NCBI GenBank assembly: GCA_965213575.1
Contig: CBDBZN010000006.1
Location: forward strand, 106,297-170,296
Source: Chitinophagales bacterium
GTDB taxonomy: Bacteria > Bacteroidota > Bacteroidia > Chitinophagales > JAUHXS01
Direction: 5' to 3'
DNA: 64,000 nt
Shown here piece by piece: positions 12,632-29,212 of this stretch. Each line of letters starts with the position of its first letter. The first letter of the stretch is position 1. The position numbers and the translations under genes were made by a program. Under the pieces are notes generated by a model. That model was not told where the DNA came from. It did no database searches and saw only the letters and a list, made by a program, of their open reading frames with translations.

Positions 12632-12782
12632 AATAATAGTTTGATCAAAGATACAAAAAAGTAGAGTATTGCTTTATGTTTTAAACCTGAGAGATCAGCT
12701 ATTGATTAAGCAGTTCCACAAAGGCTTTTTAATGTAGGCGTAAGTTTCTATATCAATGAGTTATATTCTTTATATTTACTAT

Positions 12783-14342
12783 ATGAAAGAATTATTGCTA
12801 ATATTTTTCTTGGTTTTTAATACACTAATATCCTATTGCTCTCATGTTGTAGGAGGCGATTTAACCTATCGATGTTTAGGAGGATCTGACTATGAAATTA
12901 CGCTTAAACTTTATCGTGATTGCTCTAGCCCTTTTCCTTTAGATAATTTTATTCAAAAAGTGTATAATGGTGCTGGCACTTTAGTTACAGAGGTTCCTAT
13001 TCTTTTTGAGTCTGAAGATACATTAGATATCCTTTTTAATTATCCTTGCACCGCCATCCCATCCGATGTCTGTTTAAATATAGGAACTTACAAGGATACA
13101 TTAAATTTGCCTGATACCGCTGTTGGAGGGTATACAATTATCTTAGCTACCTGCTGCAGAACACCCAATAGTGCCATAGTTAATTTAGATCTAACTAATG
13201 GAGTTGGAATTTCTTATTATGTAACTATCCCCGAAGGAATTGCTTGTAATAGCTCGCCGGTATTTAATAATGATCCGCCTATTGCATTATGCTTAGATCA
13301 ACCTTTCAGCTTTGACCATTCAGCAACTGACACAGATGGAGATCTGTTAGTGTATAAGTTATGTACTCCTTTAGATAACTCAGCTGGAGTGATTCCTCCT
13401 TCTTCTGTTCCGTACAATGCCGGATATTCTGCCGACAACCCAATTGATGCATCACCTGTAGCAGCCATTAATCCCAATACTGGACTCTTGGCTTTTACCC
13501 CCACAATGGTGGGTTTATTTGCTATAGGTATTTGTGTGGAAGAATATAGAGGAGGCGTGCTGATAGGGCAGACTAATAGGGATTTTTTATTTTCAGTAGC
13601 CGATTGTCCGCCCTTAACTGATGCTGTATTTAGTGTAGATATTCGTCAGTGTGGACAAATGGTCGCATTTACCAATGAAAGCCAGGGGTCTACTTTTACT
13701 TGGGATTTTGGAGATGCTACTGTGGATAATGATAGTTCTTCTCAAGAAAATCCTATTTATACATATGAAGATACAGGCAACTATGAGGTTCAAATGATTG
13801 TTGACCCCAATACACCTTGTGCTGATACTGCTGTTGCAGCGATAAATATAGAACGAAATCAAATTTCAGCAGATTTATCATTGTGCGATGATGTGAGTAT
13901 TACCTTAAATGCAGATACGCCTATCGCTATTGGGTACGACTGGTCGACAGGAGATACTACCAGCTCGATTAGGATTAATGAAATAGGCCAATATTTATGT
14001 GAAATTGAAACGGAATCCTCTTGCATAGAAGAGGTTTTCAATGTATTAGAATGTGATAATTTATTTGTTCCCAATGTGTTTTCACCTCAAAATCAAGATG
14101 GGTTAAATGATGTTTTTACACTCCGAAGAGCTCAAGGAACGGATAACATAGTCATGCAAATTTACGACCGGTGGGGCAAAAAAGTGTTTGAGTCCTCTCC
14201 CGGCAATACAAGTTGGGACGGTATTTTTCAAGGAAAGTTTGTAGCTACTGGCGTATATATCTATACAATTTCTGTGATTGGAGGCCAAGACAATAGAAAA
14301 GATCTGCCGATAGAGCAAGGTACGGTTACGGTTCTTGAGTAA
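12783..14342 (+). CDS. Secreted protein with PKD domain and T9SS type B sorting domain
   Basis: Signal peptide then SHVVGGDLTY...LYRDC; WDFGD PKD; FVPNVFSP...DG.ND...IYDRWG...WDG; probable start 12783 (ORF opens 12756). Confidence 0.88.
   Translation: MKELLLIFFLVFNTLISYCSHVVGGDLTYRCLGGSDYEITLKLYRDCSSPFPLDNFIQKVYNGAGTLVTEVPILFESEDTLDILFNYPCTAIPSDVCLNIGTYKDTLNLPDTAVGGYTIILATCCRTPNSAIVNLDLTNGVGISYYVTIPEGIACNSSPVFNNDPPIALCLDQPFSFDHSATDTDGDLLVYKLCTPLDNSAGVIPPSSVPYNAGYSADNPIDASPVAAINPNTGLLAFTPTMVGLFAIGICVEEYRGGVLIGQTNRDFLFSVADCPPLTDAVFSVDIRQCGQMVAFTNESQGSTFTWDFGDATVDNDSSSQENPIYTYEDTGNYEVQMIVDPNTPCADTAVAAINIERNQISADLSLCDDVSITLNADTPIAIGYDWSTGDTTSSIRINEIGQYLCEIETESSCIEEVFNVLECDNLFVPNVFSPQNQDGLNDVFTLRRAQGTDNIVMQIYDRWGKKVFESSPGNTSWDGIFQGKFVATGVYIYTISVIGGQDNRKDLPIEQGTVTVLE
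14299..14323 (+). repeat. Left copy of 25-bp direct repeat (partner 27693-27717)
   Basis: AAGATCTGCCGATAGAgcAAGGTAC. Confidence 0.75.
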
Positions 14343-14668
14343 ATAATCTGTATAAAAATAATTTTTTTGATTTCAAGATTGTAAATATTTGAAAAAAGAC
14401 ATCTTTCTCTTTCCTACCGATCCTTAATATACGATCTGCTAATCGTACCATTTCGCTCTCTTTTGGAGGTTTTTTCATCCGCTTACCGGTTGATTAGTTT
14501 AATTTATTGTGTTTATCGTAAGTAGCAGGTTTAGCGATTTTATAACTGCTATTTCCGCAAGAGCAAAACATAACTCCTATCAATTCTAATAAAAAACCAT
14601 TTCTTCACTCCCCGATTATACAAAGGAAAAACGTCCAAATAAATTAAGCTTTAAGGACTATTTTAAGT

Positions 14669-14676
14669 TACCTTTG
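14669..14676 (+). promoter_or_regulatory. Bacteroidota -7 element upstream of sensor gene
   Basis: TACCTTTG matches TAnnTTTG, 4 nt before GTG start (possibly leaderless transcript). Confidence 0.55.
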
Positions 14677-14680
14677 CAAG

Positions 14681-16150
14681 GTGAAAGTCAAGGGCTTAAA
14701 CATATGTAGTATATTTTTAATATTGCTTTTTGCTCGGTTTTTGCAAGCGGAGAACTTAGATGTTACCCTACCTGATAAGGCAACAGTTTTTATAGATTCG
14801 GGCAATCATATCTCCTTTCAGGAAGTTAGAAAACAAACATTTAGCCCGGCATCTAATGACGACTTCAATGCCGGCTTTACTAATTATATCTACTGGTATC
14901 ATTTTTTTTTATTAAATACACAAAAGGGGGAAATCCTTCAAATAGATAATCCTGAATTAGATTTTATAGAAGCTTATTTTGTTGATGATAAAGATAGTAT
15001 TATTCAATATCAACAAGCAGGTGCATTCAATGATTTTTCAAGCCGAATTTTAAAAAATAGAACGCCGTCCTTTAAAATTCTCGACGGCACCAGTCAAGTT
15101 TATTTGAAAGTTTTATCAGAAACCACATTAAACGTGCCTATTCGAATTAAAAGTCCGGACCAATATAGTAGAGACAATATATTTGGAATTATTGCTTTTA
15201 GTTTTTTGCATGCTATTATCTTGATCTTTTTCATATATAATCTGATTCTCTTTATCGCATTGAAGCGGGCTATATACGGCTATTACTCTTTGTATCTGGC
15301 TAGTATGTTTATGACCGGCTTATCAATTACAGGATTGGGGTATCAATTATTTTGGCCCTCCCATCCTTCATTTAACAGTTTTACTTCTATTTTTTTCGTA
15401 AGCAGTATGATGGTCAGTTTCTGTTTGTTTACTACTAGAATTTTAAATCTTAAAATATTTATGCCTATTTTATATAGATTATTTATCATTTTAGCTGCCA
15501 TAGGTCCATTAATAATAGTCGCTATTTTATTTTTATCACGATCGCTATTAATTCAGTTATTACATATTTTTCCGCTTATTGGGATGTTAATGGCAGTAAT
15601 GGGGGCTATTATTGGTATAGGAAGAGGCTATAAACCGGCACAGTTTTATTTGATGGGCTGGTCTGCTTTTTTTCTGGGAGCTACTCTGTTCCAATTAAGA
15701 GACTGGGGCCTGATTACTGATAATTTCCTTACAGCCAACTTTTCTTTCGTAGGTGCTGCCATTGAAGCTATATTCTTTTCCTATGGCATAGCCTTAAAAA
15801 TGAAAACATATCAAAAAGAGATTAATGATTCTAAGTCGAAAATTTCCGAATATGAAACAGAATTGGAATTGCTTAGAAAAGAATTAATAAAGCCGGATAG
15901 AAAGAAAACGGGAGGGCAAACCATTAATCAACAGAGGATCAATCAATACTTGATCAATCCCTTATCAGATAGAGAAGTAGAAGTGTTAACATTGATAGCG
16001 GAAGGTAAAACTAATAAGGAAGTAGCCAATTTATTATTTGTTTCTGTTAATACTATTAAAACCCACGTCAAAAAAATCTATGACAAATTAGATGTAAAAA
16101 ATAGAACAGAAGCTGTTACTAAAGCTAATTCACTAGAGTTGCTAGCTTGA
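14681..16150 (+). CDS. Membrane one-component regulator: 7TMR-DISM extracellular and 7TM domains, coiled coil, LuxR HTH
   Basis: Signal peptide, FNAGFT..YW..F, ~7 hydrophobic helices (YNLILF..., YLMGW, IEAIFFSYGIA), C-terminal LSDREVEVL...GKTNKEVA..LFVSVNTIKTH. Confidence 0.88.
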   Translation: MKVKGLNICSIFLILLFARFLQAENLDVTLPDKATVFIDSGNHISFQEVRKQTFSPASNDDFNAGFTNYIYWYHFFLLNTQKGEILQIDNPELDFIEAYFVDDKDSIIQYQQAGAFNDFSSRILKNRTPSFKILDGTSQVYLKVLSETTLNVPIRIKSPDQYSRDNIFGIIAFSFLHAIILIFFIYNLILFIALKRAIYGYYSLYLASMFMTGLSITGLGYQLFWPSHPSFNSFTSIFFVSSMMVSFCLFTTRILNLKIFMPILYRLFIILAAIGPLIIVAILFLSRSLLIQLLHIFPLIGMLMAVMGAIIGIGRGYKPAQFYLMGWSAFFLGATLFQLRDWGLITDNFLTANFSFVGAAIEAIFFSYGIALKMKTYQKEINDSKSKISEYETELELLRKELIKPDRKKTGGQTINQQRINQYLINPLSDREVEVLTLIAEGKTNKEVANLLFVSVNTIKTHVKKIYDKLDVKNRTEAVTKANSLELLA

Positions 16151-16651
16151 AAAAGTACCATAAATATCAATCTATCCTTACAAAAGCCCCTTCTGTAATC
16201 AGGTACAATTGATTCGAATTTTAGGAGCTTCCCACAAGGTACTTATATTGCCGGTGATTTGCTCTTCATCGATTAAATCATCCCGCTCATTTTTTCTTAC
16301 GTTAATTAAGGAAGATTAATAAACTGAGTGTGATTAGTAAAATAGATGTCTTTTTCATAATGTAGAATTAGATAAATTTTGAGGGTATTGCAGTAGGTGA
16401 TTAGATACTATATCAATAAAATTTTGCCACATCAAGTGATAAATGATATCTTAATAATGTTCTTTATCAGGTTAATGACCTGCTCGAATACCTTCTAAAA
16501 GCTATGCCACATCATGTGTTATCACCTGATAGCTAATAAATATAAGGTCAGATGATAAAATCCGACAAGGCGAAAATACATTCTACTACTACTTTCAGTT
16601 TTGCCTTCCATTTCCATTTCCACTCCTCAACTTTCCACTTTTTAAAATAAA

Positions 16652-16697
16652 TCACCCATTCGGGTGAGGGATAAAATTTATTCAAACCTTATCATTG
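16652..16697 (+). promoter_or_regulatory. Putative LuxR operator plus variant -7 box, unit 1
   Basis: TCACCC-ATTC-GGGTGA (16652-16667), 22 nt, TATCATTG (16690-16697). Confidence 0.7.
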
Positions 16698-16718
16698 TCT
16701 TTCACAAATGGTAAGAAA

Positions 16719-16943
16719 ATGGTAAAAATAGATGGATGTATTAAACACGATTTGTCAGCAAGAGAAGTGCAGGTTGTGTTGCTAATTGCTAAAGGTAAAA
16801 CCAATACTGAAATAGCAGATATCTTATTTATTTCTATTAATACCGTTAAAACTCATACTAAACATATATTCGAAAAACTTAGTGTTAAAAATCGCACAGA
16901 AGCTATTATGAAGTCTTTTTCTGAAGGGATTTTAGTGAGATAA
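16719..16943 (+). CDS. Stand-alone LuxR/GerE-type HTH regulator
   Basis: LSAREVQVVLLIAKGKTNTEIADILFISINTVKTH; ATG 16719 preferred because TTG 16695 overlaps the proposed -7 box. Confidence 0.85.
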   Translation: MVKIDGCIKHDLSAREVQVVLLIAKGKTNTEIADILFISINTVKTHTKHIFEKLSVKNRTEAIMKSFSEGILVR

Positions 16944-16953
16944 AAGATCAAAA

Positions 16954-16999
16954 TCACCCGAAGGGGTGAAGGAAACCAAGTTATCACCACCTAATATTG
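16954..16999 (+). promoter_or_regulatory. Putative LuxR operator plus variant -7 box, unit 2
   Basis: TCACCC-GAAG-GGGTGA (16954-16969), 22 nt, TAATATTG (16992-16999). Confidence 0.7.
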
Positions 17000-17025
17000 T
17001 AACGCAAATTTTAAATAAACACATC

Positions 17026-17271
17026 ATGAATAGAATTTTTACTCTTATTACTACCGGATTAATAAGCTTAACACTTACACTGGGTTTTGCTCAACAATTT
17101 AATGAAACACAAAAAATAACCGGTACAGGATTTGGACCGGCAAACACATCCTATTTTGGAACTAGCGTAGCTATTTCAGGGGATTATACCATTGTGGGAG
17201 CACCGGGATATGATTACTTCAGTACTTTAAATACCGGAGCAGCGTATATTCATGAAAAAAAACCATTTTAA
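17026..17271 (+). CDS. N-terminal fragment (signal peptide plus first FG-GAP blade) of the giant protein, cut off by frameshift at A8
   Basis: MNRIFTLITTGLISLTLTLGFAQQ...YFGTSVAISGDYTIVGAPG...GAAYIHEK, then stop after A8 at 17255-17262. Confidence 0.85.
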   Translation: MNRIFTLITTGLISLTLTLGFAQQFNETQKITGTGFGPANTSYFGTSVAISGDYTIVGAPGYDYFSTLNTGAAYIHEKKPF

Positions 17272-20200
17272 TGAATGGCAATTAGCAGAATTTTTAAGGC
17301 CTTCCAACTTAAGTGCTGATGATAGATTTGGTGCACAAGTAGCCATATCTGGGGATTATGCTGTGGTGACAGCTCCTGAACATTCAAAAGATGCATCCGG
17401 CAACAATAGTTTAAATGATGCAGGAGCAGCATATATTTATGAGCGAGATGGTACCGGTGATTGGAATATGGTACAAAAGATTGTGGCTTCCGATCGTGCT
17501 TCAGGAGAGTTTTTTGGAGAAGCACTTGCATTAGACGGGGATAGGATTATAATTGGCTCATATCTTGCAGATGCTGTTTATATATTTGAGCGTAATGGTT
17601 CTGGAGTTTGGATAGAAGAGCAAATATTATTATCGAATGATATAGTAGGGGGCGATTTCTTCGGTTTTTCAGTAGCTATAAATGGCGATTTTGCCGTAGT
17701 AGGAGCAAGTCGAGAAAATGCTACATTGTCAGGATTTAGTTCAGTAAGTAGTGCAGGGTCAGCTTATATATTTGAACGAAACGGATCAGGAGTTTGGAAT
17801 CAAATACAAAAAATAGTGGCTTCAGACAGAGAATTGAATGATGAGTTTGGAACAAGCGTAGCGATTGATGGGGATTACCTAATAGTAGGAGCAACACAGG
17901 AAGATCATAATACAGCGGGTCTTGATTTTAGAAATAGAGCCGGTTCTGCTTATATATTTGAAAAGGATGGTTCAGGTACGTGGAATGAAGTACAAAAAGT
18001 CACAGAATTTCTTAGAGCAGCAGGTTCAGAATTTGGACATTCTGTTTCGCTAAAAGGAGATAGAGTAATTGTGACAGAAGCTTCTCTTTATGCAGGGGCA
18101 TCTGTATTTGAACGAGATGGATCAGATAATTGGAACTATCAAGAAAAATTGATCAATGAAGGCTACACTTATAATGATGCATCTCAGAGCCCCGTGGCTT
18201 TATCTAGCGAGGGAATGGCTATTGTTGGTATCAATTTAGAAGGAGAAGACGAATTCAGTAATAGAACTTTTGAAGGAGCGGCATATATTTATACCTATTG
18301 CGAGCCAACTTCTTCTACTATTAACCTCACTGTTTGCGAGCCTTACTTAGCCCCCTCACAAACACAAACATTTACTGTTTCAGGAAATTATACAGATGTT
18401 ATTCCAAATACTAGGGGGTGTGATAGTACCATCTCAATTAACCTTATCGTGAATCAAAACCCACCGACTATTAATCCGGCTGGTCCTTTAGTAATCTGCT
18501 CGGGAATTAATGAAACTCTATCTATCCCTGCCGTAGGAGGGGCAAGCTATTGTTATTTTAAAAATGAACAATGGGATAATGTGGGAAGCAGTGTTTCCAG
18601 TGGTGTAGGTCAATATACTACCTTGACTTTTGATGTAAATGATATACCATATGTGGTATTTAGAGATGAAGATGAAAATTTCACGCCGAGCGTTAAAAAA
18701 TTTGATGGTAATAATTGGGTTTTTGTAGGAGCCCCACGTAGTATTGAAATCAACCCGATAGGCAATGATTTGGATATGGCTATAAGCCAGTCAAATACAC
18801 CATATGTAACATATAGAGCGGGCTTCTCTAGTGGTTTGTATAGGGCAACGGTAAAAAGATTTGATGGAACAGATTGGATAAAAATAGGTTCTAATGAAGC
18901 TTCCACTGGTGAGGTGCGTGATGTTAATATAGCGTTTGGCGAATATGAAACGCCCTATATCGCATATAAAGATGTAGACAATGGAGACAAAGCAACTGTA
19001 ATGAAATACGAAGCCGGTTTCTGGGAACCTGTAGGGAATATTGCTTTTAGCTCCGGATCAATAACCGGCCTAAGCTTAGTAGTAAATAATAATAATGTAC
19101 CTTATGTAGCTTTTTCTGATGACAACAACAGTAATAAAGCCACCGTGATGAAGTATAATGGTACTACCTGGGTTAACGTTGGTGCTGCGGGTTTTACTTC
19201 AGGTGCTTCTTATGTTAATAAACTTGCACTTAATAATTCCGGCACTTTACATATGGCTTCTTATGATGTAGCGAATGGTAATAAAGCAACGGTCTATAAA
19301 TTCAACGGCAGTAGTTGGGTTACTGTTGGCACTGCGGGTTTTTCAGCAGGTATGGCCAATGATATTGACTTTGGCATAAATGAAGCAGATGAGCTATATG
19401 TTGCCTATCGAGATAATGCAAATAGCAATAAACTTACCGTAATGACTTATGATGGAATTGATTGGGTTCCTGCCGGTGATATTGCTTTTAGTGAAGGTGA
19501 TGTAAATACACCAAGCATTGCCTTTGGAGCATATAATAAACCTTATGTTGCCTATAGGAATTTGGCTAACGGAAATAAAATATCAGTAGAGAAAATAGAG
19601 CCTGTTTGTATAGGTAATTCAAATTCTTTAGTGATTAACACAACAGGTACTTATAATGTGGAGGTAACCGCTTCAGATGGCTGTATCAGCTATGCTGCCA
19701 ACTCAGTAACAGTCACCAATGGTACTAATACCACTGCTACTATTTCACCAACGGTTTGTGAAAGCTATACCGTGCCAAGTGGTGATGAAACATATAATAT
19801 CAGTGGAAATTATACAGACACAATTTTAAATACTTCAGGATGTGACAGTGTATTGACCATTAATCTTACTATTTTAAATAGTTCTTCAGCCACTCTAAAC
19901 ATTGATACCTGTGCAGCTTCTTATACTGTGCCAAGTGGCGATAAAACGTATACGGTTAACGGCACCTATTCCGATACAATTTCAAACGCAGTAGGATGCG
20001 ACAGTATCTTAACCATCAATCTTACTATTAATAATAATTCATTTACTAATCAGTATGAAACTACCGTTGATAGTTTTATGTGGTCATCTAACGGCATCAC
20101 TTACTACGAATCAGGAGTGTATACCAACGTTTTGCCGAATAGTGTGGGTTGCGATTCTGTCATTACACTTTACTTAACTATTGAAGAAGAATCTTTTTAT

Positions 20201-23200
20201 AATGAAATACAAAAGATTGTAGCGGCTGATAGAACAGCAGACGATAATTTTGGACAAGCCGTAGATGTGGATGGATCATTTGCAATTGTTGGTGCACATA
20301 GAGATGATTATTTCTCAGGTGGATTCAAAACGGATGTAGGATCAGCTTATATCTTTGAAAAAGGGTTAGATGGAACTTGGACTCAAGCCCAGAAATTAAC
20401 TCCTTCTGATGTACCTACAAATACCGATTACTTCGGCTATTCAGTTGCTATTTCAGGAAACTATGCAGTGATAGGAGCTTTTTTAGAAGATGAAGGGGCT
20501 ACAGGCTTTGGAACAGTTAATGATGCGGGTTCGGCTTATGTTTTTGAAAGAGATGTGTTTTCTAATACGTGGAGCCAAACGGCTAAAATTGTGGCTTTTG
20601 ATAGAGCTACAGGTGATTACTTTGGCTCGTCAGTTGATATATATGGCGACTATATAGTAGTTGGAGCTCCGTCAGAAGATGAAGATGCAGGTGGAGGAAA
20701 TACCCTGTCAGGTGCAGGTTCTGTATATATCTTTAAACGATCAGGTGCTAATTGGAACTTTACTACTAAATTAGTTCATTCAGATAGAGATGCAAGTGAT
20801 GGATTTGGTGCTGAATTGTCTTTATTTGCAAACAAATTAATTGTTGGTGTTTCTGGTCAAGATTTGGATGCATCCGGTGGTAACTCTCTGACAAGTGCAG
20901 GTGCAGCATATATTTTTGAACGCGATGGGTTAGACAATTGGAGCGAAATGCAAAAATTGGTAGCTAGTGAGCGTAAAAGCTCTGACTTTTTCGGGGCTTC
21001 GGTAAGCATTTCCGATTCTTTCGCCGTTGTGGGAGCCTCCGGGGAAGATGAAGATGCCAGTGGAGGAAATACATTATCTAGTGCAGGTGCACTATATACT
21101 TTTAAACTAAGTGCTTCCAATGTATGGTCTCAAACTCAAAAACTAGTTGCTTCTGATAGAGCAGCGTTTGATGTATTGGGTAAATCTGTAAAGATTGAAG
21201 GTGATTGGATTCTTGCAGGTGTTCCTTTTGAAGATCACGATACCTCCGGATTAAATCAGTTATCAAGTTCCGGATCTGTATATGTATTCAATAAAGATAT
21301 TTTAGGTGCTTGGAGTGAAACTCAAAAATTAGTTGCATCCGATAGAGCCATTAATGATAATTATGGGTTCCCGGTTGCCATATCCGGTGCCTACTTATTC
21401 TCAGCAGCTAAGTTAGAAGATGAAGATGAAAACGATGCCAATACCAAAACGGATGCGGGCTCAGTTTATATTTTAGGGAGATGCGGAACAGCTTTCTCTT
21501 TCATCAATGAAACGGCATGTAATTTTTATATCAGCCCTTCCGGGAAAAAGTTTAACACTAATGGTATTTATGAAGATACTGTTACCACACAATTAGGTTG
21601 TGATAGTATTATTACAATAACACTAGATATTTTAAATAATACATTCAGCCCTAGCCCAATTACGGTTTCATCTTGTTATCAATATACGTGGCCATTAAAT
21701 GGCTTAACTTATACAACCAGCGGCACGTATAAAACAGCTTTAACAAATAGTATGGGTTGTGATTCTATAATTACTTTAGATTTAACTATAACAAGTGATG
21801 AAATTCCTTTTGAGCAAATAACTAGTTTTTCAGATAGTACAGCGTATGACTACCTCGGTTCATCCGTTGCAATTGATGGTGAATTTATGGTGGCAGGTGC
21901 CCCGGGAGAAGATCAGGATGTCAATGGGAATAATACAATAAATGGAGCAGGGTCTGCCTTCATGTATCAAAAAGGGTTGACAGGGGAATGGGAGTTTGCC
22001 CAAAAGATTGTTGCTTCTGATAGAGCAGCAAATGACGAGTTTGGAACAAGTGTAGATATTCATGGAGATTATATGATCGTGGGTGTTCCATTCGAAGATC
22101 ATGATGAAGCAGGAGGTAGCTTTATGACTTCTGCTGGATCAGCTTATATTTTTGAAAAAGATGGAAGTGGTAATTGGAGTCAAGTGCAAAAGATTGTGTC
22201 GGCTGATAGGGCTATTAATGATCAGTTTGGAATTTCTGTTGCTATCTACGGCAACTATGCTTTTGTTGGGGCAACCGGACAAGGTTATGACGAAAATGGA
22301 GGTAATTTTTTAAGCTTGGCAGGAGCTGCTTACATCTTTGAACGAGATGGAGGGGGTAATTGGACTCAAATCAAAAAGGTAGTTGCTACAGATCGTGTGA
22401 ACAATGATAATTTTGGAGGAGCTATTGATGTATATAAAGACTATGCAATTATAAGTGCAGCCGGACAAGGTTATGACGAAAATGGAGGGAACTTGGTTTT
22501 TGGTGCTGGAGCTGTGTATGCTTATAAATTTGATTCAGAATGGCGAGAATTCCAAAAGATCGTTTCTTCTGAAAGGTTTTTTGGTGACGCTTTCGGAACA
22601 TCTGTATCAATTGCTGGAAACTATTTCGTAGCTAGTGCTAGAGGACAAGATAGGGATGAAAATGGAGGCAATTTTTTAAGCTTGGCAGGAGCTGCCTATA
22701 TTTTTGAATATGATAATACAGGAATATGGAGTGAAATGCAGAAAATTGTGGCTTCCGATAGAGCTGCAAATGATGGATTCGGAAATTCAGTAGCTATTTC
22801 AGGAAACCAAGTGGTGGTGGGTGCCACCAGTGAGGATGAAGATGAAAATGGTAATAATACCTTAAATGCTTCAGGTTCAGCTTATTATTTTGAAACCGAA
22901 GGTACTATTTGGACAGAGAAGAAAAAATTGGTAAGTAACGACCGCGAAATTCAAGATGGATACGGTAGTGCAGTTGCTATATCTGAAGGTACTCTAGCAG
23001 TAGGAGCATCTGGAGATCGGCTGGGATCATTATTGTATGGTGCAGGTGCGGTTTATATATTAGACAGAGTTACTCCTCAAAGTAATATTACTGAAGTAGC
23101 TTGTGGTTCATACACCACTCCTTCCGGTAATCAGACCTATTCAGCTAGCGGTATTTATACAGATATCCTACCAAGTGCATCGGGTTGCGATAGTGTCATT

Positions 23201-26200
23201 ATTATTGACCTTACTATTAATAATAACTCATTTAACACATTAAATGTAGATGCATGCGATAGTTATACAGTTCCTTCCGGAGATGAGACATATACTGCGA
23301 GCGGAACATATATGGATACTATACCTAATGCAGTTGGGTGCGATAGCATACTGACAATCAACTTAAATTACCTGGGTAATAGCTCTTCTTCTTTTGTCTC
23401 TGTTACAGAATGTGATGAGTATATTTTCAATGGAGAAATATATGCGACAACTGGAGTTTATGATATCGTAATTCCTAACTCAGCAGGGTGTGATAGTAAT
23501 ATTACTTTAGATTTAACTATAAACTATAGTAATGCCACCTATGTTGAAGCAGTTAAGGCTGTTGCCTCAGACCGTGCTATCGATGATGAATTTGGGCATT
23601 CCGTAGCAATAAGCGGACAATATGCGGTAGTTGGAGCAAGGTATGAAGACGAGGATGAAAGTGGTAACAATACGCTATCCACCGCTGGGTCAGTATATAT
23701 ATTTAAGCAAGATGTAAACGGAGACTGGAATGAAGTCCAAAAAATAGTCGCTTCTGATCGTGCCACTGGAGATAACTTTGGTCAAGATGTGGCTATTGAT
23801 GGAGACTATATAGTTGTTGGTGCGTCTTTTGAAGGATCGCCTAAACCAGGTGCTGCATATATCTTCCAAAAAGACGGAGGCGGTATTTGGAACGAGGTTC
23901 AAAAACTTCAAGTTTCTGGTGAGTTTAATTATGCTGAATTTGGACATTCGGTAGATATAGATAATGATTTAATAGTAGTGGGTGCGAGATATGCAGGACT
24001 AGACGCTGGAGGTGCCAATTCAATGACCTCTGCAGGTGCTGCTTATGTATTCAAAAGAGATGGTGGTGGTACATGGAGTGAAGTTCAAAAGCTTGTTGCT
24101 TCTGACAGGGCTAATTTTGATAATCTTGGTACAGACGTTACTATATCTCAAGATCGCATAGCAGTTGGTGGACCATTCAATGATTTGGATGAAAATGGTT
24201 TAAATTCATTGTCAAACTCGGGAGGTGTTTATATTTTCGAAGAAGATGGTGGTGGCACATGGACTCAAATTCAAAAAGTAGTGGCTTCTGATAGAGATAA
24301 TGGGGATAACTTTGGATATTCACTTTCGGTAAGTGGTAATACTTTGCTAGTAGGTGCATACAATGAAAAAGAAGATCAGCTAGGAGGTAATACATTGAAT
24401 GCAGCAGGTTCGGCATATATTTTTGAAAGAGATGGCGGAGGCATTTGGGCTCAAACACAAAAGGTTGTAGCTGAAGATAGAGCAAGTAATGACTATTTTG
24501 GTTATAGCGTGAGTATGTCAGGCAGTTTCGGATTAATTGGTGCATACCGAAGTAAGCGTGATGCAGAAGGCTTAAACGCTTTTTCTTCAGCTGGAGCGGC
24601 ATATATTTTTAAGAAAAATATTGATGGTGGATGGTCTCAGTTGGAGAAAGTTGTTCCATCTGATAGAGCTAGTAATGATGAGTTTGCTAAATCAGTTGCC
24701 ATTTCGGGAGCTAATTTTATAGCCGGAGCAAGCTTTGAGGATGAAAATGAAACTGGTACAAGTATGCTCAGTAAAGCAGGCTCTGTTTATTTCTTTGAGC
24801 AAGAATTAATTGCAGTTCCCGTAGCTGTAAGTGCTTGTGAAAGCTATACCGTACCATCAGGAGATGAAACGTATACGGTGAGTGGGATGTATATGGATAC
24901 GATCCAAACTATTTCAGGTTGTGATAGTTTGCTCGTAATTGATGTTACGATCAATAATCATTCTTCTGCTACTATTAATCCATCTGTTTGTGGTAGCTAT
25001 ACTGTTCCATCAGGAGATGAAATTTATACAGTTAGTGGTACCTATAATGATACCATTGCTAATACTGCAGGGTGTGATAGCTTGTTAACGATTAACTTAA
25101 CCATTAATGGCAACAGCTCTTCTACAGAAGATACAACTGTATGTGATAGCTACACTTGGAATGGAGGCACGTATACTGTTTCCGGAACATATTATGACAC
25201 GATTCCTACCGGAGCGGCTTGTGATAGCTTCTTGACATTAAACCTGGTAGTTAATTATAGCAGTTCTTCCACAGAAACAATTACCGCTTGTGATAGCTAT
25301 ATGTGGAATGGAATGACTTTTAACTCATCCGGAACTTATAGAGATACTATTCCAAATGGAGTGAATTGTGATAGCTTTATGACATTAAATCTGACGATTA
25401 ACAATAGCACCTCAGCTTCAATTAGTCCTACTGCTTGTGAATCTTATACCGTTCCATCAGGAGATGAAACTTATTCGGTAAGCGGAATGTATTCTGATAC
25501 GATACCTAATGCTGCAAACTGTGATAGTATTATTACGATTAATCTTACTATAAACAATAACAGTTCCTCATCAGAGACAGAAACCGCTTGTGAAAGTTAT
25601 ATATGGAATGGCATGACTTTCACCTCAAGTGGGACTTATTTTGACACCATACCGAATACTATTAGTTGCGATAGTTTTATGACGTTGAATCTGACGATTA
25701 ATAATAATAGTTCTTCGACTGAAACGGTTTCTGCTTGCGGAAATTATGATTGGAACGGAACAAACTATACTGTAAGTGGTGTGTATCGAGATACGATACC
25801 GAATGCTATAAACTGTGATAGTTTCATGACACTAAACTTAACGATAAGTGATATCACGACAGCTACCATTAGTCCAGCCGCTTGTGAAACATACACTGTT
25901 CCTTCCGGTGATGAAACATATATAGTTAGTGGTAACTATATGGACACGATTCTTAATGTTGGAGGATGTGATAGTATTATCACCATTAACTTGACGATTA
26001 ATAATCATACTTCTGCAACGCTTAATGAAAGTGTATGTAACATCTATACCGTTCCTTCCGGCGATGAAACATATACGATGGATGGAACTTACTTGGATAC
26101 CATAGCAAATACTGCAGGTTGTGATAGTATCTTAACGATCAACTTAACCATACTGGGAACGAGTTCTTCGACAGAAGATACGATGGTTTGTGATAGTTAT

Positions 26201-27580
26201 ATTTGGAATGGGAATACCTATACCGTTTCCGGTACTTATTACGATACCATCCCGACAGGAGCGGCTTGTGATAGCTTCTTGACATTGAACTTAGTAGTAA
26301 ATAATTCTACTAATGATACGGTTGAAGTGGTTGTTTGTCCGGGAACGGATTATGTATTACCGGGAGGAGCAACTGTAAATACAGCAGGTTTCTATAGAGA
26401 TACATTGATGACGGCTAGTAACTGTGATAGTATTATCAATACAGACTTTAAATTTGCTCCAATATATGATGAAGATGTTGATGCTGCTATTTGTCAAGGT
26501 GAAAGTTATACCTTGCCAAGTGGATTAGTCGTAAACACAGGAGGGGTTTATCGTGATACGTTATTGACGAATAATAATTGCGATAGCATCACCAATACTA
26601 CGTTGATTGTGAACCCAACTTATATCATTAATATTTCTGATACTGTTTGTCAAGGGCAAGGGTATGAGCTGCCGAGAGGAGAGGTTGTGTTTATTGATAG
26701 TATTTATACTGATACATTAATGACTGAAGCAGGTTGTGATAGTATCATTATTGTAGATCTTAGTGTAGACTCATCCGGATTGGTTACGAGTGAATTTATG
26801 TCATTCTGTGAAGGTGAAACCTACACATTACCATGGGGAGACGTAATTGATTCAGCAGGTATCTTTATTGATCCGACTATTGTGGGTTGTGATACCTTTA
26901 CCCAATATGTAGTTACTGTTAATCCGGTGTATAACATCATCGATTTTATTGTCATCTGTGCAGGTGACAGTATTGAATTGTTTGGTGAGTTTGTTTCAAA
27001 GCCTGATATTTATGAGGCTTCATTTACTACTTCAGATGGGTGCGATAGTAATATAACGATTGAAGTAATATATGATAATTTCGCTGGAGCTGATCAGGCC
27101 CTTACGATCTGCGACACCTTTACTAATTTCGATCTTTCGACAGTAATTACTGCTGATGCCGATACCAATGGTATTTGGATTGATGTAAATGGTACAGGAG
27201 CAATTAGCGGATCTATGTTTGATGCTTCAGGAGTTACAGCCGGGACTTATACAGTTAAATATGCGACGCCTGCCACAGGAAGTTGTGAGAATGATACGGC
27301 TACCTTTACAGTAACTGTTCAGCCTTGTCTAAATTCCGGTATTGTTGCTGTTGAAATACCAAATATTGAGGTATTCCCTAATCCTGCTAAAGACAAGCTG
27401 AATATTAAAAGTAATACTCAGATGAATATCCTTTCAGTATATAATACGTTAGGTCAGCTTTATCTGGAATACAATGCAGTTCCACGTACGTTAGATGTAT
27501 CTAATTGGATTCCGGGAGTGTATTTTATAGAAATAACTCATGCTTCAGGTGTTCAGCAGATTAAGGTTGTAAAACATTAG
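17252..27580 (+). CDS. Giant FG-GAP multi-propeller surface protein with Cys-pair stalk repeats and T9SS type A CTD (body of frameshifted gene)
   Basis: Many FG.SVAI.G...VGA...GSAYIFE blades in four clusters, one different propeller, ~24 C..Y...G.Y.DT....GCDS units, C-terminal VFPNPA...GVYFI. Confidence 0.9.
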   Translation: MKKNHFNEWQLAEFLRPSNLSADDRFGAQVAISGDYAVVTAPEHSKDASGNNSLNDAGAAYIYERDGTGDWNMVQKIVASDRASGEFFGEALALDGDRIIIGSYLADAVYIFERNGSGVWIEEQILLSNDIVGGDFFGFSVAINGDFAVVGASRENATLSGFSSVSSAGSAYIFERNGSGVWNQIQKIVASDRELNDEFGTSVAIDGDYLIVGATQEDHNTAGLDFRNRAGSAYIFEKDGSGTWNEVQKVTEFLRAAGSEFGHSVSLKGDRVIVTEASLYAGASVFERDGSDNWNYQEKLINEGYTYNDASQSPVALSSEGMAIVGINLEGEDEFSNRTFEGAAYIYTYCEPTSSTINLTVCEPYLAPSQTQTFTVSGNYTDVIPNTRGCDSTISINLIVNQNPPTINPAGPLVICSGINETLSIPAVGGASYCYFKNEQWDNVGSSVSSGVGQYTTLTFDVNDIPYVVFRDEDENFTPSVKKFDGNNWVFVGAPRSIEINPIGNDLDMAISQSNTPYVTYRAGFSSGLYRATVKRFDGTDWIKIGSNEASTGEVRDVNIAFGEYETPYIAYKDVDNGDKATVMKYEAGFWEPVGNIAFSSGSITGLSLVVNNNNVPYVAFSDDNNSNKATVMKYNGTTWVNVGAAGFTSGASYVNKLALNNSGTLHMASYDVANGNKATVYKFNGSSWVTVGTAGFSAGMANDIDFGINEADELYVAYRDNANSNKLTVMTYDGIDWVPAGDIAFSEGDVNTPSIAFGAYNKPYVAYRNLANGNKISVEKIEPVCIGNSNSLVINTTGTYNVEVTASDGCISYAANSVTVTNGTNTTATISPTVCESYTVPSGDETYNISGNYTDTILNTSGCDSVLTINLTILNSSSATLNIDTCAASYTVPSGDKTYTVNGTYSDTISNAVGCDSILTINLTINNNSFTNQYETTVDSFMWSSNGITYYESGVYTNVLPNSVGCDSVITLYLTIEEESFYNEIQKIVAADRTADDNFGQAVDVDGSFAIVGAHRDDYFSGGFKTDVGSAYIFEKGLDGTWTQAQKLTPSDVPTNTDYFGYSVAISGNYAVIGAFLEDEGATGFGTVNDAGSAYVFERDVFSNTWSQTAKIVAFDRATGDYFGSSVDIYGDYIVVGAPSEDEDAGGGNTLSGAGSVYIFKRSGANWNFTTKLVHSDRDASDGFGAELSLFANKLIVGVSGQDLDASGGNSLTSAGAAYIFERDGLDNWSEMQKLVASERKSSDFFGASVSISDSFAVVGASGEDEDASGGNTLSSAGALYTFKLSASNVWSQTQKLVASDRAAFDVLGKSVKIEGDWILAGVPFEDHDTSGLNQLSSSGSVYVFNKDILGAWSETQKLVASDRAINDNYGFPVAISGAYLFSAAKLEDEDENDANTKTDAGSVYILGRCGTAFSFINETACNFYISPSGKKFNTNGIYEDTVTTQLGCDSIITITLDILNNTFSPSPITVSSCYQYTWPLNGLTYTTSGTYKTALTNSMGCDSIITLDLTITSDEIPFEQITSFSDSTAYDYLGSSVAIDGEFMVAGAPGEDQDVNGNNTINGAGSAFMYQKGLTGEWEFAQKIVASDRAANDEFGTSVDIHGDYMIVGVPFEDHDEAGGSFMTSAGSAYIFEKDGSGNWSQVQKIVSADRAINDQFGISVAIYGNYAFVGATGQGYDENGGNFLSLAGAAYIFERDGGGNWTQIKKVVATDRVNNDNFGGAIDVYKDYAIISAAGQGYDENGGNLVFGAGAVYAYKFDSEWREFQKIVSSERFFGDAFGTSVSIAGNYFVASARGQDRDENGGNFLSLAGAAYIFEYDNTGIWSEMQKIVASDRAANDGFGNSVAISGNQVVVGATSEDEDENGNNTLNASGSAYYFETEGTIWTEKKKLVSNDREIQDGYGSAVAISEGTLAVGASGDRLGSLLYGAGAVYILDRVTPQSNITEVACGSYTTPSGNQTYSASGIYTDILPSASGCDSVIIIDLTINNNSFNTLNVDACDSYTVPSGDETYTASGTYMDTIPNAVGCDSILTINLNYLGNSSSSFVSVTECDEYIFNGEIYATTGVYDIVIPNSAGCDSNITLDLTINYSNATYVEAVKAVASDRAIDDEFGHSVAISGQYAVVGARYEDEDESGNNTLSTAGSVYIFKQDVNGDWNEVQKIVASDRATGDNFGQDVAIDGDYIVVGASFEGSPKPGAAYIFQKDGGGIWNEVQKLQVSGEFNYAEFGHSVDIDNDLIVVGARYAGLDAGGANSMTSAGAAYVFKRDGGGTWSEVQKLVASDRANFDNLGTDVTISQDRIAVGGPFNDLDENGLNSLSNSGGVYIFEEDGGGTWTQIQKVVASDRDNGDNFGYSLSVSGNTLLVGAYNEKEDQLGGNTLNAAGSAYIFERDGGGIWAQTQKVVAEDRASNDYFGYSVSMSGSFGLIGAYRSKRDAEGLNAFSSAGAAYIFKKNIDGGWSQLEKVVPSDRASNDEFAKSVAISGANFIAGASFEDENETGTSMLSKAGSVYFFEQELIAVPVAVSACESYTVPSGDETYTVSGMYMDTIQTISGCDSLLVIDVTINNHSSATINPSVCGSYTVPSGDEIYTVSGTYNDTIANTAGCDSLLTINLTINGNSSSTEDTTVCDSYTWNGGTYTVSGTYYDTIPTGAACDSFLTLNLVVNYSSSSTETITACDSYMWNGMTFNSSGTYRDTIPNGVNCDSFMTLNLTINNSTSASISPTACESYTVPSGDETYSVSGMYSDTIPNAANCDSIITINLTINNNSSSSETETACESYIWNGMTFTSSGTYFDTIPNTISCDSFMTLNLTINNNSSSTETVSACGNYDWNGTNYTVSGVYRDTIPNAINCDSFMTLNLTISDITTATISPAACETYTVPSGDETYIVSGNYMDTILNVGGCDSIITINLTINNHTSATLNESVCNIYTVPSGDETYTMDGTYLDTIANTAGCDSILTINLTILGTSSSTEDTMVCDSYIWNGNTYTVSGTYYDTIPTGAACDSFLTLNLVVNNSTNDTVEVVVCPGTDYVLPGGATVNTAGFYRDTLMTASNCDSIINTDFKFAPIYDEDVDAAICQGESYTLPSGLVVNTGGVYRDTLLTNNNCDSITNTTLIVNPTYIINISDTVCQGQGYELPRGEVVFIDSIYTDTLMTEAGCDSIIIVDLSVDSSGLVTSEFMSFCEGETYTLPWGDVIDSAGIFIDPTIVGCDTFTQYVVTVNPVYNIIDFIVICAGDSIELFGEFVSKPDIYEASFTTSDGCDSNITIEVIYDNFAGADQALTICDTFTNFDLSTVITADADTNGIWIDVNGTGAISGSMFDASGVTAGTYTVKYATPATGSCENDTATFTVTVQPCLNSGIVAVEIPNIEVFPNPAKDKLNIKSNTQMNILSVYNTLGQLYLEYNAVPRTLDVSNWIPGVYFIEITHASGVQQIKVVKH

Positions 27581-27820: not shown

Positions 27821-29212
27821 TTATTCATTATCCACCGGTTCAGCAGCAGGCTCTTCTTCAAGAGATTTTTTATCGTATTTACGTTTATTAGTGCTCTTGC
27901 CACCATCCATTTTCGGGTCAAATAGTCCCATTTCCGGCTTACGTTTGCTTCTTTTCCTTACTTTATTAGCTTTATAACCAAATATTTCTTTTTTACCTGT
28001 ATTATTTGATACTTTATAAGACTGTCCGGCTGTTTCATATTCCTTTGCTGTTCTAGCATCTACTTCCGTTGGTTCCATATTTCTCATATTCACAGGATCT
28101 CCAAAAATGCCACCCTTTTTATTTCTACTGACTTTGTAAGATTGTCCGCTCGTCTCGTATTCTTTCGCAACACTAGCTTTAACTTGTGTCGGCTGTCTAT
28201 TGTTTCCACTAACATCTACACCGAAAATTCCTTTCTTTTGTTGTTTGTCAACCTTATAGGATTGCCCGGCTGTTTCGTATTGCTTAGCAATACTTGCTGA
28301 TACTTTGCCGGGTTTTGTGGGAGCAGTATTACCCGTTTCTCCAAAAATCCCTTGTTTTCCTACACCGGTAGTATAATAAGATTGAGTGGAAGTTTCATAT
28401 TCTTTAGCAGTAGACTTTTTAACTGTATTTGGCGTTCTATCTATAGGCTTATTACTTTCTCCAAAAATTCCCTTTTTACTGGCCTCATTTACATAATAGG
28501 ATTGCCCTCCGCCTTCATACTCTTTTGCTATTTTTGCATCAACTTTATTAGGCGTAGTATTTACCTTGCCGGCATGTTCACCAAAAATCCCTTGCTTTTT
28601 TATTTCTTTTACATGATAAGATTGGCTTGCTGTTTCATATTGTTTCGCCACCTTCGCAGCTATCGTCGGAGGGTCTTTATCAGGATTTTTGACTTCTACG
28701 CCGAAGATGCCACTTTTTTTAGCCTTTTCTACTTTATAAGATTGAGTACTTGTTTCATATTTTTTTGCAATAGAGGGATTTATCTCACCGCCTTCAACCT
28801 CAACCTTTCCTATGTTGCCAAAAATCCCTTGCTTTAGTTCTTTTTCAACTTTATAAGACTGTCCGGCTGTTTCATGCTCTTTCGCAACTTTCGCTTTAAC
28901 TGGTACCGGTTCCATATAAGGATATTTGACTTGTGAACCGAAAATTCCATTTTTTTCTGCAGGCTTAGCTTTAAAAGATTGAGTGGAAGTTTCATGCTCT
29001 TTTGCAGTGCTTGCATTAGTTTTGGTAGGATTTTTAATGCCGGTTGGGTTAAAGGTTTTTAATTTGGCCGGTTTAGTGCCCGTTTTTATCTTTGAGCCTT
29101 TATCTCTATTCGTACTGTTAGGAATTGGATTTTGATCTACCTGAGCAAATATCAAACATGAAAGAGCTGTATAGAATAGGAAAAATATAATTAAAAGGTA
29201 TTTTTTACTCAT
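27821..29212 (-). CDS. Exported Lys-rich protein with nine ~40-aa tandem repeats
   Basis: Signal peptide (cleavage near IFA-Q); repeat AK.YET..QSY.V.....K.GIFG........P..V.A..; 120-nt periodicity visible in DNA. Confidence 0.85.
   Translation of the reverse strand: MSKKYLLIIFFLFYTALSCLIFAQVDQNPIPNSTNRDKGSKIKTGTKPAKLKTFNPTGIKNPTKTNASTAKEHETSTQSFKAKPAEKNGIFGSQVKYPYMEPVPVKAKVAKEHETAGQSYKVEKELKQGIFGNIGKVEVEGGEINPSIAKKYETSTQSYKVEKAKKSGIFGVEVKNPDKDPPTIAAKVAKQYETASQSYHVKEIKKQGIFGEHAGKVNTTPNKVDAKIAKEYEGGGQSYYVNEASKKGIFGESNKPIDRTPNTVKKSTAKEYETSTQSYYTTGVGKQGIFGETGNTAPTKPGKVSASIAKQYETAGQSYKVDKQQKKGIFGVDVSGNNRQPTQVKASVAKEYETSGQSYKVSRNKKGGIFGDPVNMRNMEPTEVDARTAKEYETAGQSYKVSNNTGKKEIFGYKANKVRKRSKRKPEMGLFDPKMDGGKSTNKRKYDKKSLEEEPAAEPVDNE

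Follow-up and report, generated by a model that had tools for sequence, protein, structure and literature searches.

A predicted membrane-bound LuxR-type regulator with a 7TMR-DISM sensor and two candidate palindromic promoter sites beside a giant type IX secretion cargo gene in a Chitinophagales bacterium

Several described systems share features with the locus examined here. ToxR and CadC combine an N-terminal winged-helix domain with a C-terminal periplasmic sensor through a single transmembrane (TM) helix. Class II activators, among them LuxR at its lux box, bind as dimers to a palindrome centred near position -42, where they replace or overlap the upstream promoter hexamer, and the DNA-binding domains of GerE, LiaR, VraR and NarL also bind inverted repeats as dimers. 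RetS and LadS are said to be examples of the 7TMR-DISM receptor family, the account of which is attributed to Anantharaman and Aravind in 2003. The most similar regulator is BguR of Formosa agariphila. According to a preprint (bioRxiv 10.64898/2026.01.10.698779, July 2026), this protein of 940 amino acids (aa) has a periplasmic beta-propeller/Y_Y_Y sensor that is joined through one TM helix and a helical linker to a GerE domain, activates the adjacent laminarin utilization locus without a phosphorelay and has a predicted conserved motif between the regulator and its first target gene, and its authors regard SusR as the sole comparable case. Here, we have analyzed a locus in a stretch of 64,000 nucleotides (the window; positions 106,297 to 170,296 of the forward strand of contig CBDBZN010000006.1) from the genome of a Chitinophagales bacterium (GenBank assembly GCA_965213575.1; 2,674,222 bases, ~34% G+C). 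It contains four features, all on the plus strand: a 7TMR-DISM sensor fused to a GerE-type helix-turn-helix (HTH) domain, a gene for an HTH-only LuxR protein (mini-LuxR), a giant gene in two pieces that encodes FG-GAP repeats and a type IX secretion system (T9SS) sorting domain, and a pair of palindromes (Table 1).

Our analysis suggests that the sensor is probably a membrane one-component activator, in which a dimer of the HTH domain would sit on the palindrome in place of the -33 promoter element and drive both adjacent promoters. The DISMED2 domain would face outward, seven helices would cross the membrane, and the seventh would continue into the cytoplasm as a helix and a flexible linker that bears the GerE HTH. 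The dimer would recognize the 16-bp site AAA-TCACCC-N4-GGGTGA, whose centre precedes the first base of the -7 box by 30.5 nucleotides (nt), that is, roughly at -41 to -45 from the predicted start site, and once bound it would activate the promoters of both the mini-LuxR and the giant FG-GAP T9SS surface protein. The mini-LuxR would be a free, diffusible copy of the HTH that most likely binds the same two sites, because its recognition helix is of the same type, and would thereby add feedback. Anatomy, uniqueness of the sites, promoter spacing, covariation and recurrence were computed, whereas the signal, binding, activation instead of repression and the way in which the mini-LuxR acts are what we infer.

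Assignment of the sensor to the 7TMR-DISM receptors is based on a 7TMR-DISMED2 domain (PF07696, aa 34-156, 2.6e-21, exceeding the cut-off) and a 7TMR-DISM_7TM domain (PF07695, aa 172-371, 5.5e-35), which covers positions 4-203 of the 205 in the model. A GerE domain (PF00196, aa 427-482, 1.6e-19), which places the protein in the LuxR/GerE HTH family, is all that follows the 7TM module; Pfam detected no HisKA, HATPase or receiver domain in the sensor, nor the intracellular kinase, cyclase or phosphatase that is usual for 7TMR-DISM proteins. NCBIfam had no family at its cut-off for either the sensor or the mini-LuxR. An AlphaFold2 (AF2) model built on 33 homologs (mean predicted local distance difference test 88, predicted template-modelling score 0.74) contained an N-terminal helix, a beta-sandwich at residues 35-157, seven long membrane helices between residues 159 and ~372, the last of which stays helical up to residue 403, then a linker of low confidence (406-415) and a compact HTH domain made of helices (417-484). 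Since the N-terminal domain is outside and the chain crosses the membrane seven times, the HTH domain should be cytoplasmic. Thus, Pfam and AF2 bear out the original prediction, made from the sequence alone, that the sensor fuses a 7TMR-DISM module to a LuxR HTH without kinase or receiver domain, and Pfam and TIGR04183 likewise confirm its HTH-only LuxR next to a giant T9SS gene of ~10.5 kb. The common palindrome that it placed ahead of the mini-LuxR and the giant gene was also found, exact in both copies and unique to this locus in the genome.

Both palindromes read TCACCC-N4-GGGTGA and are 302 nt apart. They are the only two exact copies in the whole genome, where the reversed control gave none and about 0.02 sites would be expected from a composition estimate. 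A shuffle test limited to the window and allowing up to two mismatches was not significant by itself (two sites found versus a mean of 0.62; 12 of 100 shuffles reached two). Elsewhere in the genome, 22 sites with one or two mismatches occur, and the four that were checked did not have the layout of A-tract and box. No palindrome precedes the sensor gene or its possible -7 box, which sits only a short distance from the start codon GTG at 14681; only the mini-LuxR and the giant gene carry the site. For the mini-LuxR, ATG 16719 is the likely start, since the alternative TTG at 16695 falls inside the predicted -7 box. A sigma-70 promoter scan gave 19 matches versus 14.2 expected, which is uninformative because this phylum uses other promoter elements.

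Table 1. Features of the locus and their positions in the window
Feature	Position	Strand	Description	Basis
Possible sensor promoter -7 box TACCTTTG	14669..14676	+	Perfect match to the consensus TAnnTTTG	Read from the sequence
Sensor gene	14681..16150	+	489 aa; signal/anchor helix, DISMED2, 7 TM, helical extension, linker, GerE HTH	Pfam, AF2, homologs of the same architecture
Operator 1 (predicted)	16648..16667	+	A-tract, then palindrome TCACCCATTCGGGTGA at 16652-16667	
mini-LuxR -7 box-like sequence TATCATTG	16690..16697	+	Starts 22 nt after operator 1; start codon 21 nt past box	
mini-LuxR	16719..16943	+	74 aa, GerE HTH only (PF00196, 4.8e-21); full open reading frame 16695-16943	Pfam
Operator 2 (predicted)	16954..16969	+	Palindrome TCACCCGAAGGGGTGA with AAAA on its 5' side, 11 nt past the mini-LuxR stop codon	
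Giant-gene -7 box-like sequence TAATATTG	16992..16999	+	Starts 22 nt after operator 2; ATG 26 nt past box	
Giant gene, piece 1	17026..17271	+	81 aa; signal-peptide-like N-terminus, first FG-GAP_2; stop created by the frame break	
A8 run, point of the frame break	17255..17262	+	230 nt past the ATG; sole homopolymer of at least 7 bases in the 10.5-kb gene	
Giant gene, piece 2	17252..27580	+, frame +1	3442 aa; FG-GAP_2 in 25 stretches (blades of beta-propellers)	
T9SS type A C-terminal sorting domain	27371..27562	+	aa 3374-3437 of piece 2	

Evidence for promoter sites came from related loci. Relatives of the sensor were collected, and palindromes were sought only downstream of the sensor genes, without the use of promoter features. 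This gave 15 sites in the window and 11 loci of other genomes (2 in the window, 3 in a genome of the same genus, G001, and 10 in eight other Bacteroidota records), or 14 after removal of a near-copy. Promoters of Bacteroidota have the -7 consensus TAnnTTTG with a -33 partner TTTG, as described for Bacteroides. All 14 aligned sites have an octamer nAnn[T/A]T[T/A/C][G/A] that begins exactly 22 nt past the palindrome: in palindrome-aligned columns, A40, T/A43 and T44 occurred in 14 of 14 sites, T45 in 12 and G46 in 13. The 22-nt spacer itself (columns 17-38) was unconserved, and an A-tract lies on the 5' side, with A at positions -3 and -1 in 13 of the 14 sites. Since the targets are mutually unrelated (FG-GAP, SBBP, HEAT and other signal-peptide proteins), the fixed spacing is not inherited sequence. 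A palindromic site upstream of the sensor gene was absent from all 12 sensor loci.

The -33 element TTTG was kept near positions 13-22 in none of the 14 sites, and the promoter-proximal half-site occupies its expected place. This arrangement could be read in two ways. GerE-type proteins can activate or repress, and the sensor and/or the mini-LuxR might be a repressor, with the palindrome over the -33 place blocking RNA polymerase until a signal frees it. A half-site at this place would suit occlusion equally well, and at two loci (L042 and L048) the mini-LuxR and the target share a single predicted palindromic promoter, which would fit negative autoregulation. However, the consistent lack of a -33 element is what activator-dependent promoters predict, and the only studied relative, BguR, is reported as an activator. 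On these two grounds we favor activation and consider repression unlikely.

The half-sites were further compared with the recognition helices of the regulators, which vary at one position of the motif NT[VI]K-X-H. We take this position to be the one that aligns with a base-contacting position of NarL. X was T (once S) in all 11 loci with TCAYCC half-sites (13 proteins) and Y or F in all seven loci with CTACCC half-sites (10 proteins, a near-identical pair being merged); that is, the residue class (T/S vs Y/F) tracked the half-site (TCA vs CTA) at each of the 18 loci scored. One locus, L124, an opposite-strand case with X = A and CCACCC/GGGTGA, was left out of this comparison. The recognition residues of the mini-LuxRs agree with the half-site of their own locus. 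Both states were present within both sensor types, namely among DISM sensors (L032 differing) and among sensors with TPR repeats (L038, L041, L123 and L136 vs L040, L042, L043, L045, L048 and L126), and about four changes of state were needed on the HTH tree.

The same-genus genome G001 provides a particularly clear case. It encodes three paralogous DISM/LuxR sensors (L031, L032 and L033; 49, 35 and 32% identity to the window sensor), each with its own site downstream (TCACCC..GGGTGA, CTACCC..GGGTGG and TCATCC..GGATGA). The genes behind these sites differ: one encodes FG-GAP_2 and Por_Secre_tail domains, one an SBBP beta-propeller repeat with Ig_7, and one a HEAT-repeat protein, so that two of the three are beta-propeller repeat proteins. 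No mini-LuxR was present at any of the three loci. To judge from these sequences, the trio looks like insulation after duplication.

To see how widely the fusion occurs, sensor homologs were considered as a family. Only three proteins with DISMED2, 7TM and GerE were found by a word-indexed search, whereas an exhaustive search with the sensor gave 271 matches below 1e-30. Among the best 150 of these 271, 38 were picked by full-length coverage; 37 of the 38 carry 7TM and GerE (one with a beta-helix replacing DISMED2) and one is a kinase. Thus, the 7TM-GerE fusion is a genuine family that comprises 37 or more clusters at 50% identity. In most of the relatives linked to a palindrome the sensor is of another type: TPR repeats follow a signal peptide, and one TM helix stands ahead of the HTH. 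As a separate observation, three large proteins (P0035, P0046 and P0056; 2854, 3836 and 6391 aa) each matched the query LuxR HTH in 8-13 separate stretches, and so many tandem HTH domains in one protein are unusual.

The mini-LuxR is 56% identical to sensor residues 419-484, and the two proteins have recognition helices of one type (NTVKTH in the mini-LuxR, NTIKTH in the sensor). Matches of the mini-LuxR in the PDB include the LiaR DNA-binding domain (4wt0, 4.6e-16) and GerE (1fse, 5e-8). In 4 of the 12 sensor loci (the window, L042, L045 and L048), the gene that directly follows the palindrome encodes a mini-LuxR, and at L045 a second palindrome follows the mini-LuxR, as in the window. The HTH tree was short and poorly resolved and does not place the mini-LuxRs relative to their local sensors. 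LuxR-type HTH domains dimerise. With this identity and the common helix type, the mini-LuxR could also be the true activator and the sensor an anti-activator that traps it in mixed HTH dimers at the membrane. Yet 8 of the 12 sensor loci with a palindromic promoter have no mini-LuxR, and there the sensor must act alone; we regard such sequestration as the least probable of the accounts considered here.

A strict class-wide pattern (palindrome-N22-nAnnTTTG) had 31 matches in 18 of 400 genomes, versus 2 for the reversed control. Thirty of these loci were fetched, and in 29 of them an open reading frame (ORF) starts within 300 nt; at about 20 of the 30 loci the downstream ORF appeared by eye to encode a signal-peptide protein, and at three it encodes a mini-LuxR. 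A LuxR HTH ORF was present within 1.5 kb in 10 of the 30. In four genomes (G001, G145, G182 and G189, picked for having matches), 7 of 7 exact palindromes had the box in the A-flanked orientation. In addition, a Flagellimonas record (L103:5225-5290) has a cytoplasmic GAF+GerE regulator followed by AAAAA-CTGTAC-TAAA-GTACAG, 22 nt and GTTTTTTG. With the same grammar and another half-site, this locus indicates that the promoter design may extend beyond membrane sensors.

It should be noted that several observations weigh against the operator reading. First, the sequences in the covariation table are related to one another, and the columns from which the tree was built include the variable residue; because of this relatedness, the protein-DNA covariation is best regarded as suggestive and not as statistical proof. 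Second, the two boxes in the window read ATTG and not TTTG, and the window therefore fails the strict class-wide pattern, for which 20 of the 30 loci fetched also have no LuxR gene within 1.5 kb. Third, the gap between sensor and operator is 500 nt in the window versus 20-90 nt at the other loci. Fourth, a convergent gene lies downstream of a distant DISM/LuxR homolog (L159, 26% identity), where the palindrome is absent, which means that the downstream-target arrangement is not universal. L159 lies on a metagenome contig, is of the KYH type and has a terminator-like hairpin after the gene. The metagenome scan used a 6-sequence alignment and patterns from the HTH alone, and yielded 80 mixed LuxR loci with one full-length DISM type.

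The remaining points of this kind concern the possibility that the palindromes act as RNA hairpins, which would terminate the sensor and mini-LuxR transcripts, form their 3' ends or be sites of processing, and not as DNA to which a protein binds. Their 6-bp stems are stable and GC-rich (-10.4 to -11.1 kcal/mol, z -2.4 to -3.0), the stem is kept where the loop varies, and at most loci the site lies directly past a stop codon; operator 1, on the other hand, sits 500 nt past the sensor stop codon. The minus strand scores as terminator-like, which is owed to the A-tract, whereas the coding strand has no T-run in the window and at most sensor-linked sites, where an A-tract stands on the 5' side instead. 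One genome, G396, has the palindrome ten times, mostly as AAAAAA-palindrome-TTTTTT and with the strict box in 4 of 10, and the G001 locus L033 has a true terminator-like hairpin adjoining its site. A hairpin, however, would not need exactly 22 nt to the -7 box of the next gene across unrelated targets, nor would its sequence change together with a residue in the recognition helix of the neighboring protein; the Rfam search gave zero matches (positions 14300-17400, E up to 1). The comparative data favor operators, and we consider hairpins of this function highly improbable. Separately, the copies in G396 (L145, L149, L152 and L154-L158) resemble bidirectional terminators or a dispersed repeat.

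Taken together, the predicted regulatory role of the sensor is well supported by comparative evidence. The original prediction had a membrane-tethered LuxR act through a shared operator. This part gains from the fixed -7 spacing, the covariation, the recurrence at other loci and the BguR precedent, whereas its carbohydrate ligand and its choice between amplifier and competitor for the mini-LuxR received no computed support. A broader generalization is offered tentatively. Bacteroidota might possess insulated cassettes of sensor, operator and cargo, in which a membrane LuxR carries an interchangeable outward sensor (7TMR-DISM, TPR, perhaps others) and acts through a private 6-N4-6 operator in place of the -33 element, one residue reading the two bases that open the half-site (T/S for TCA, Y/F for CTA). 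Each cassette would have one neighboring secreted or T9SS propeller target and, optionally, an HTH-only copy that frees the signal from the membrane. Since the sensor domain lies in the compartment that the cargo crosses, the sensor may monitor the cargo or its secretion instead of an outside nutrient.

The giant protein has ~3,520 aa overall, encoded by a gene of ~10.5 kb that is split by the A8 run. Its C-terminus belongs to type A T9SS cargo (Por_Secre_tail: PF18962, 1.5e-11; TIGR04183, 2.4e-10, 40.3 bits vs a cut-off of 23), and its hydrophobic N-terminus, MNRIFTLITTGLISLTLTLGFAQQ as read by eye, is parted from the protein body by the frame break. A run of A7 would be in frame and read GAA AAA AAC (E-K-N) in the register of the repeats: 13 of the 14 repeats that match G[AS]AY[IV][FYH]...W have seven residues between the motifs, and the junction gives seven only with A7. 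As the repeat register requires A7, the assembly carries one extra A. Runs of A or T of at least 7 bases occur about once per kb in the genome. The public contigs, from a single run, end at 17261 and restart at 17256, inside the A-run, with depths of 4.1 and 2; such a break would fit length variation, or just thin coverage. Among the contigs of two further sequencing runs, none fell on the window, and no RNA run containing the locus was listed, which is neutral for the regulatory reading.

The A8 run is an early homopolymer that sets the frame, as expected of a phase-variable contingency gene. A genome-wide flag based on ORF geometry marked 47 of 2845 homopolymer runs as possible frame breaks; 15 of the 47 were checked, and 10 join two different genes, 5 were uninformative and none splits one family. 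That the flag shows an error-prone assembly was therefore rejected, since it mostly marks gene junctions. Because the assembly is not visibly full of such errors, the frame break in the giant gene stands out. The run may reflect an assembly error, a dead gene or a switch, the last being an idea only. The homopolymer switch of the original prediction is unsupported, given that A7 is in frame, that the A-run is an ordinary E-K-N of the repeat and that coverage is ~2-4x.

Several other features of the locus and its surroundings were also observed. No tandem repeats were found at the DNA level in the giant gene. GC skew was 0.12-0.27 over positions 18001-27000, within the giant gene, and higher than in the rest of the window, which probably stems from the Gly-rich repeats. 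The 500-nt spacer between the sensor and operator 1 (16151-16650) has no convincing small ORF. It contains a 24-nt repeat with TGCCACATCA[A/T]GTG in two copies 80 nt apart (16418-16441 and 16498-16521) and a 27-nt imperfect inverted repeat of 78% (16377-16403 / 16473-16499), neither of which is accounted for by an ORF or RNA family. Directly 5' of operator 1 and its A-tract, about four short direct repeats TTCCAT/TTCCAC (16590-16640) are candidates for an upstream promoter element or a further binding site. Upstream of the sensor, a plus-strand gene (12756-14342) encodes a protein that has both a PKD domain and a type B (CHU_C) T9SS sorting domain, and carries no palindrome; downstream, a 463-aa ORF on the minus strand (27821-29212), convergent on the giant gene, had no Pfam match with an E-value of 0.01 or below.

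Little is understood of how environmental Bacteroidota regulate T9SS cargo and giant surface proteins, and the first description in this phylum of LuxR regulators of the membrane one-component kind is very recent and concerns a single sugar-utilization locus. The locus and its relatives provide a candidate promoter grammar, in which an A-tract and a 6-N4-6 palindrome are followed after 22 nt by the -7 box, and a candidate specificity rule of one residue and two bases, with G001 as a predicted natural trio of circuits that do not cross-talk. If this is true, regulons of such sensors would be predictable from sequence, and orthogonal promoter/regulator pairs could be built for Bacteroidota. Outside subscription journals, which the literature search did not cover, we found no paper on a 7TMR-DISM protein with a DNA-binding output and none on T9SS cargo that LuxR controls through a site of this kind; a 'LuxR-like' mention of Fjoh_4220 (PMC12239597) proved to be unrelated to this question.

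Comparison with the known systems shows partial likeness to each of them. Like RetS and LadS, the sensor has the DISMED2 and 7TM module, full length against both Pfam models; unlike receptors of that type, whose known outputs are histidine kinase, GGDEF and PP2C domains (outputs that also occur among the proteins searched), its output is a DNA-binding domain. The mini-LuxR consists of an HTH only, as do Bacillus subtilis GerE (1fse) and the LiaR, VraR and NarL domains, with structure matches of 4.6e-16 to 2e-7. Unlike these, it stands outside a sporulation cascade or two-component system and is paired with a membrane relative that shares its predicted site. As with LuxR and class II activators, the predicted position of the palindrome replaces the upstream promoter element, but the promoter here is of the -33/-7 Bacteroidota type, the regulator is membrane-bound and there is no acyl-homoserine-lactone domain. 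ToxR and CadC also sense outside and bind DNA inside in one protein without phosphotransfer, as predicted for this sensor, which differs in its reverse polarity, seven TM helices, another DNA-binding fold and another phylum.

BguR is similar in more respects. Both proteins are from Bacteroidota and have an outside sensor, membrane span, linker and C-terminal GerE domain without HisKA, HATPase or receiver; both have a predicted site between the regulator and the first target, with action on the adjacent locus that is reported for BguR and predicted here. This comparison covers architecture and layout. In contrast to BguR, the window sensor has no Y_Y_Y match and seven TM helices, and thus falls outside the definition of BguR given by its authors; the targets here are T9SS or secreted propeller proteins, a mini-LuxR is optional and relatives have TPR sensors. 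The present system is a further form of this recently recognized type of regulator, and it comes with a candidate promoter grammar and specificity rule.

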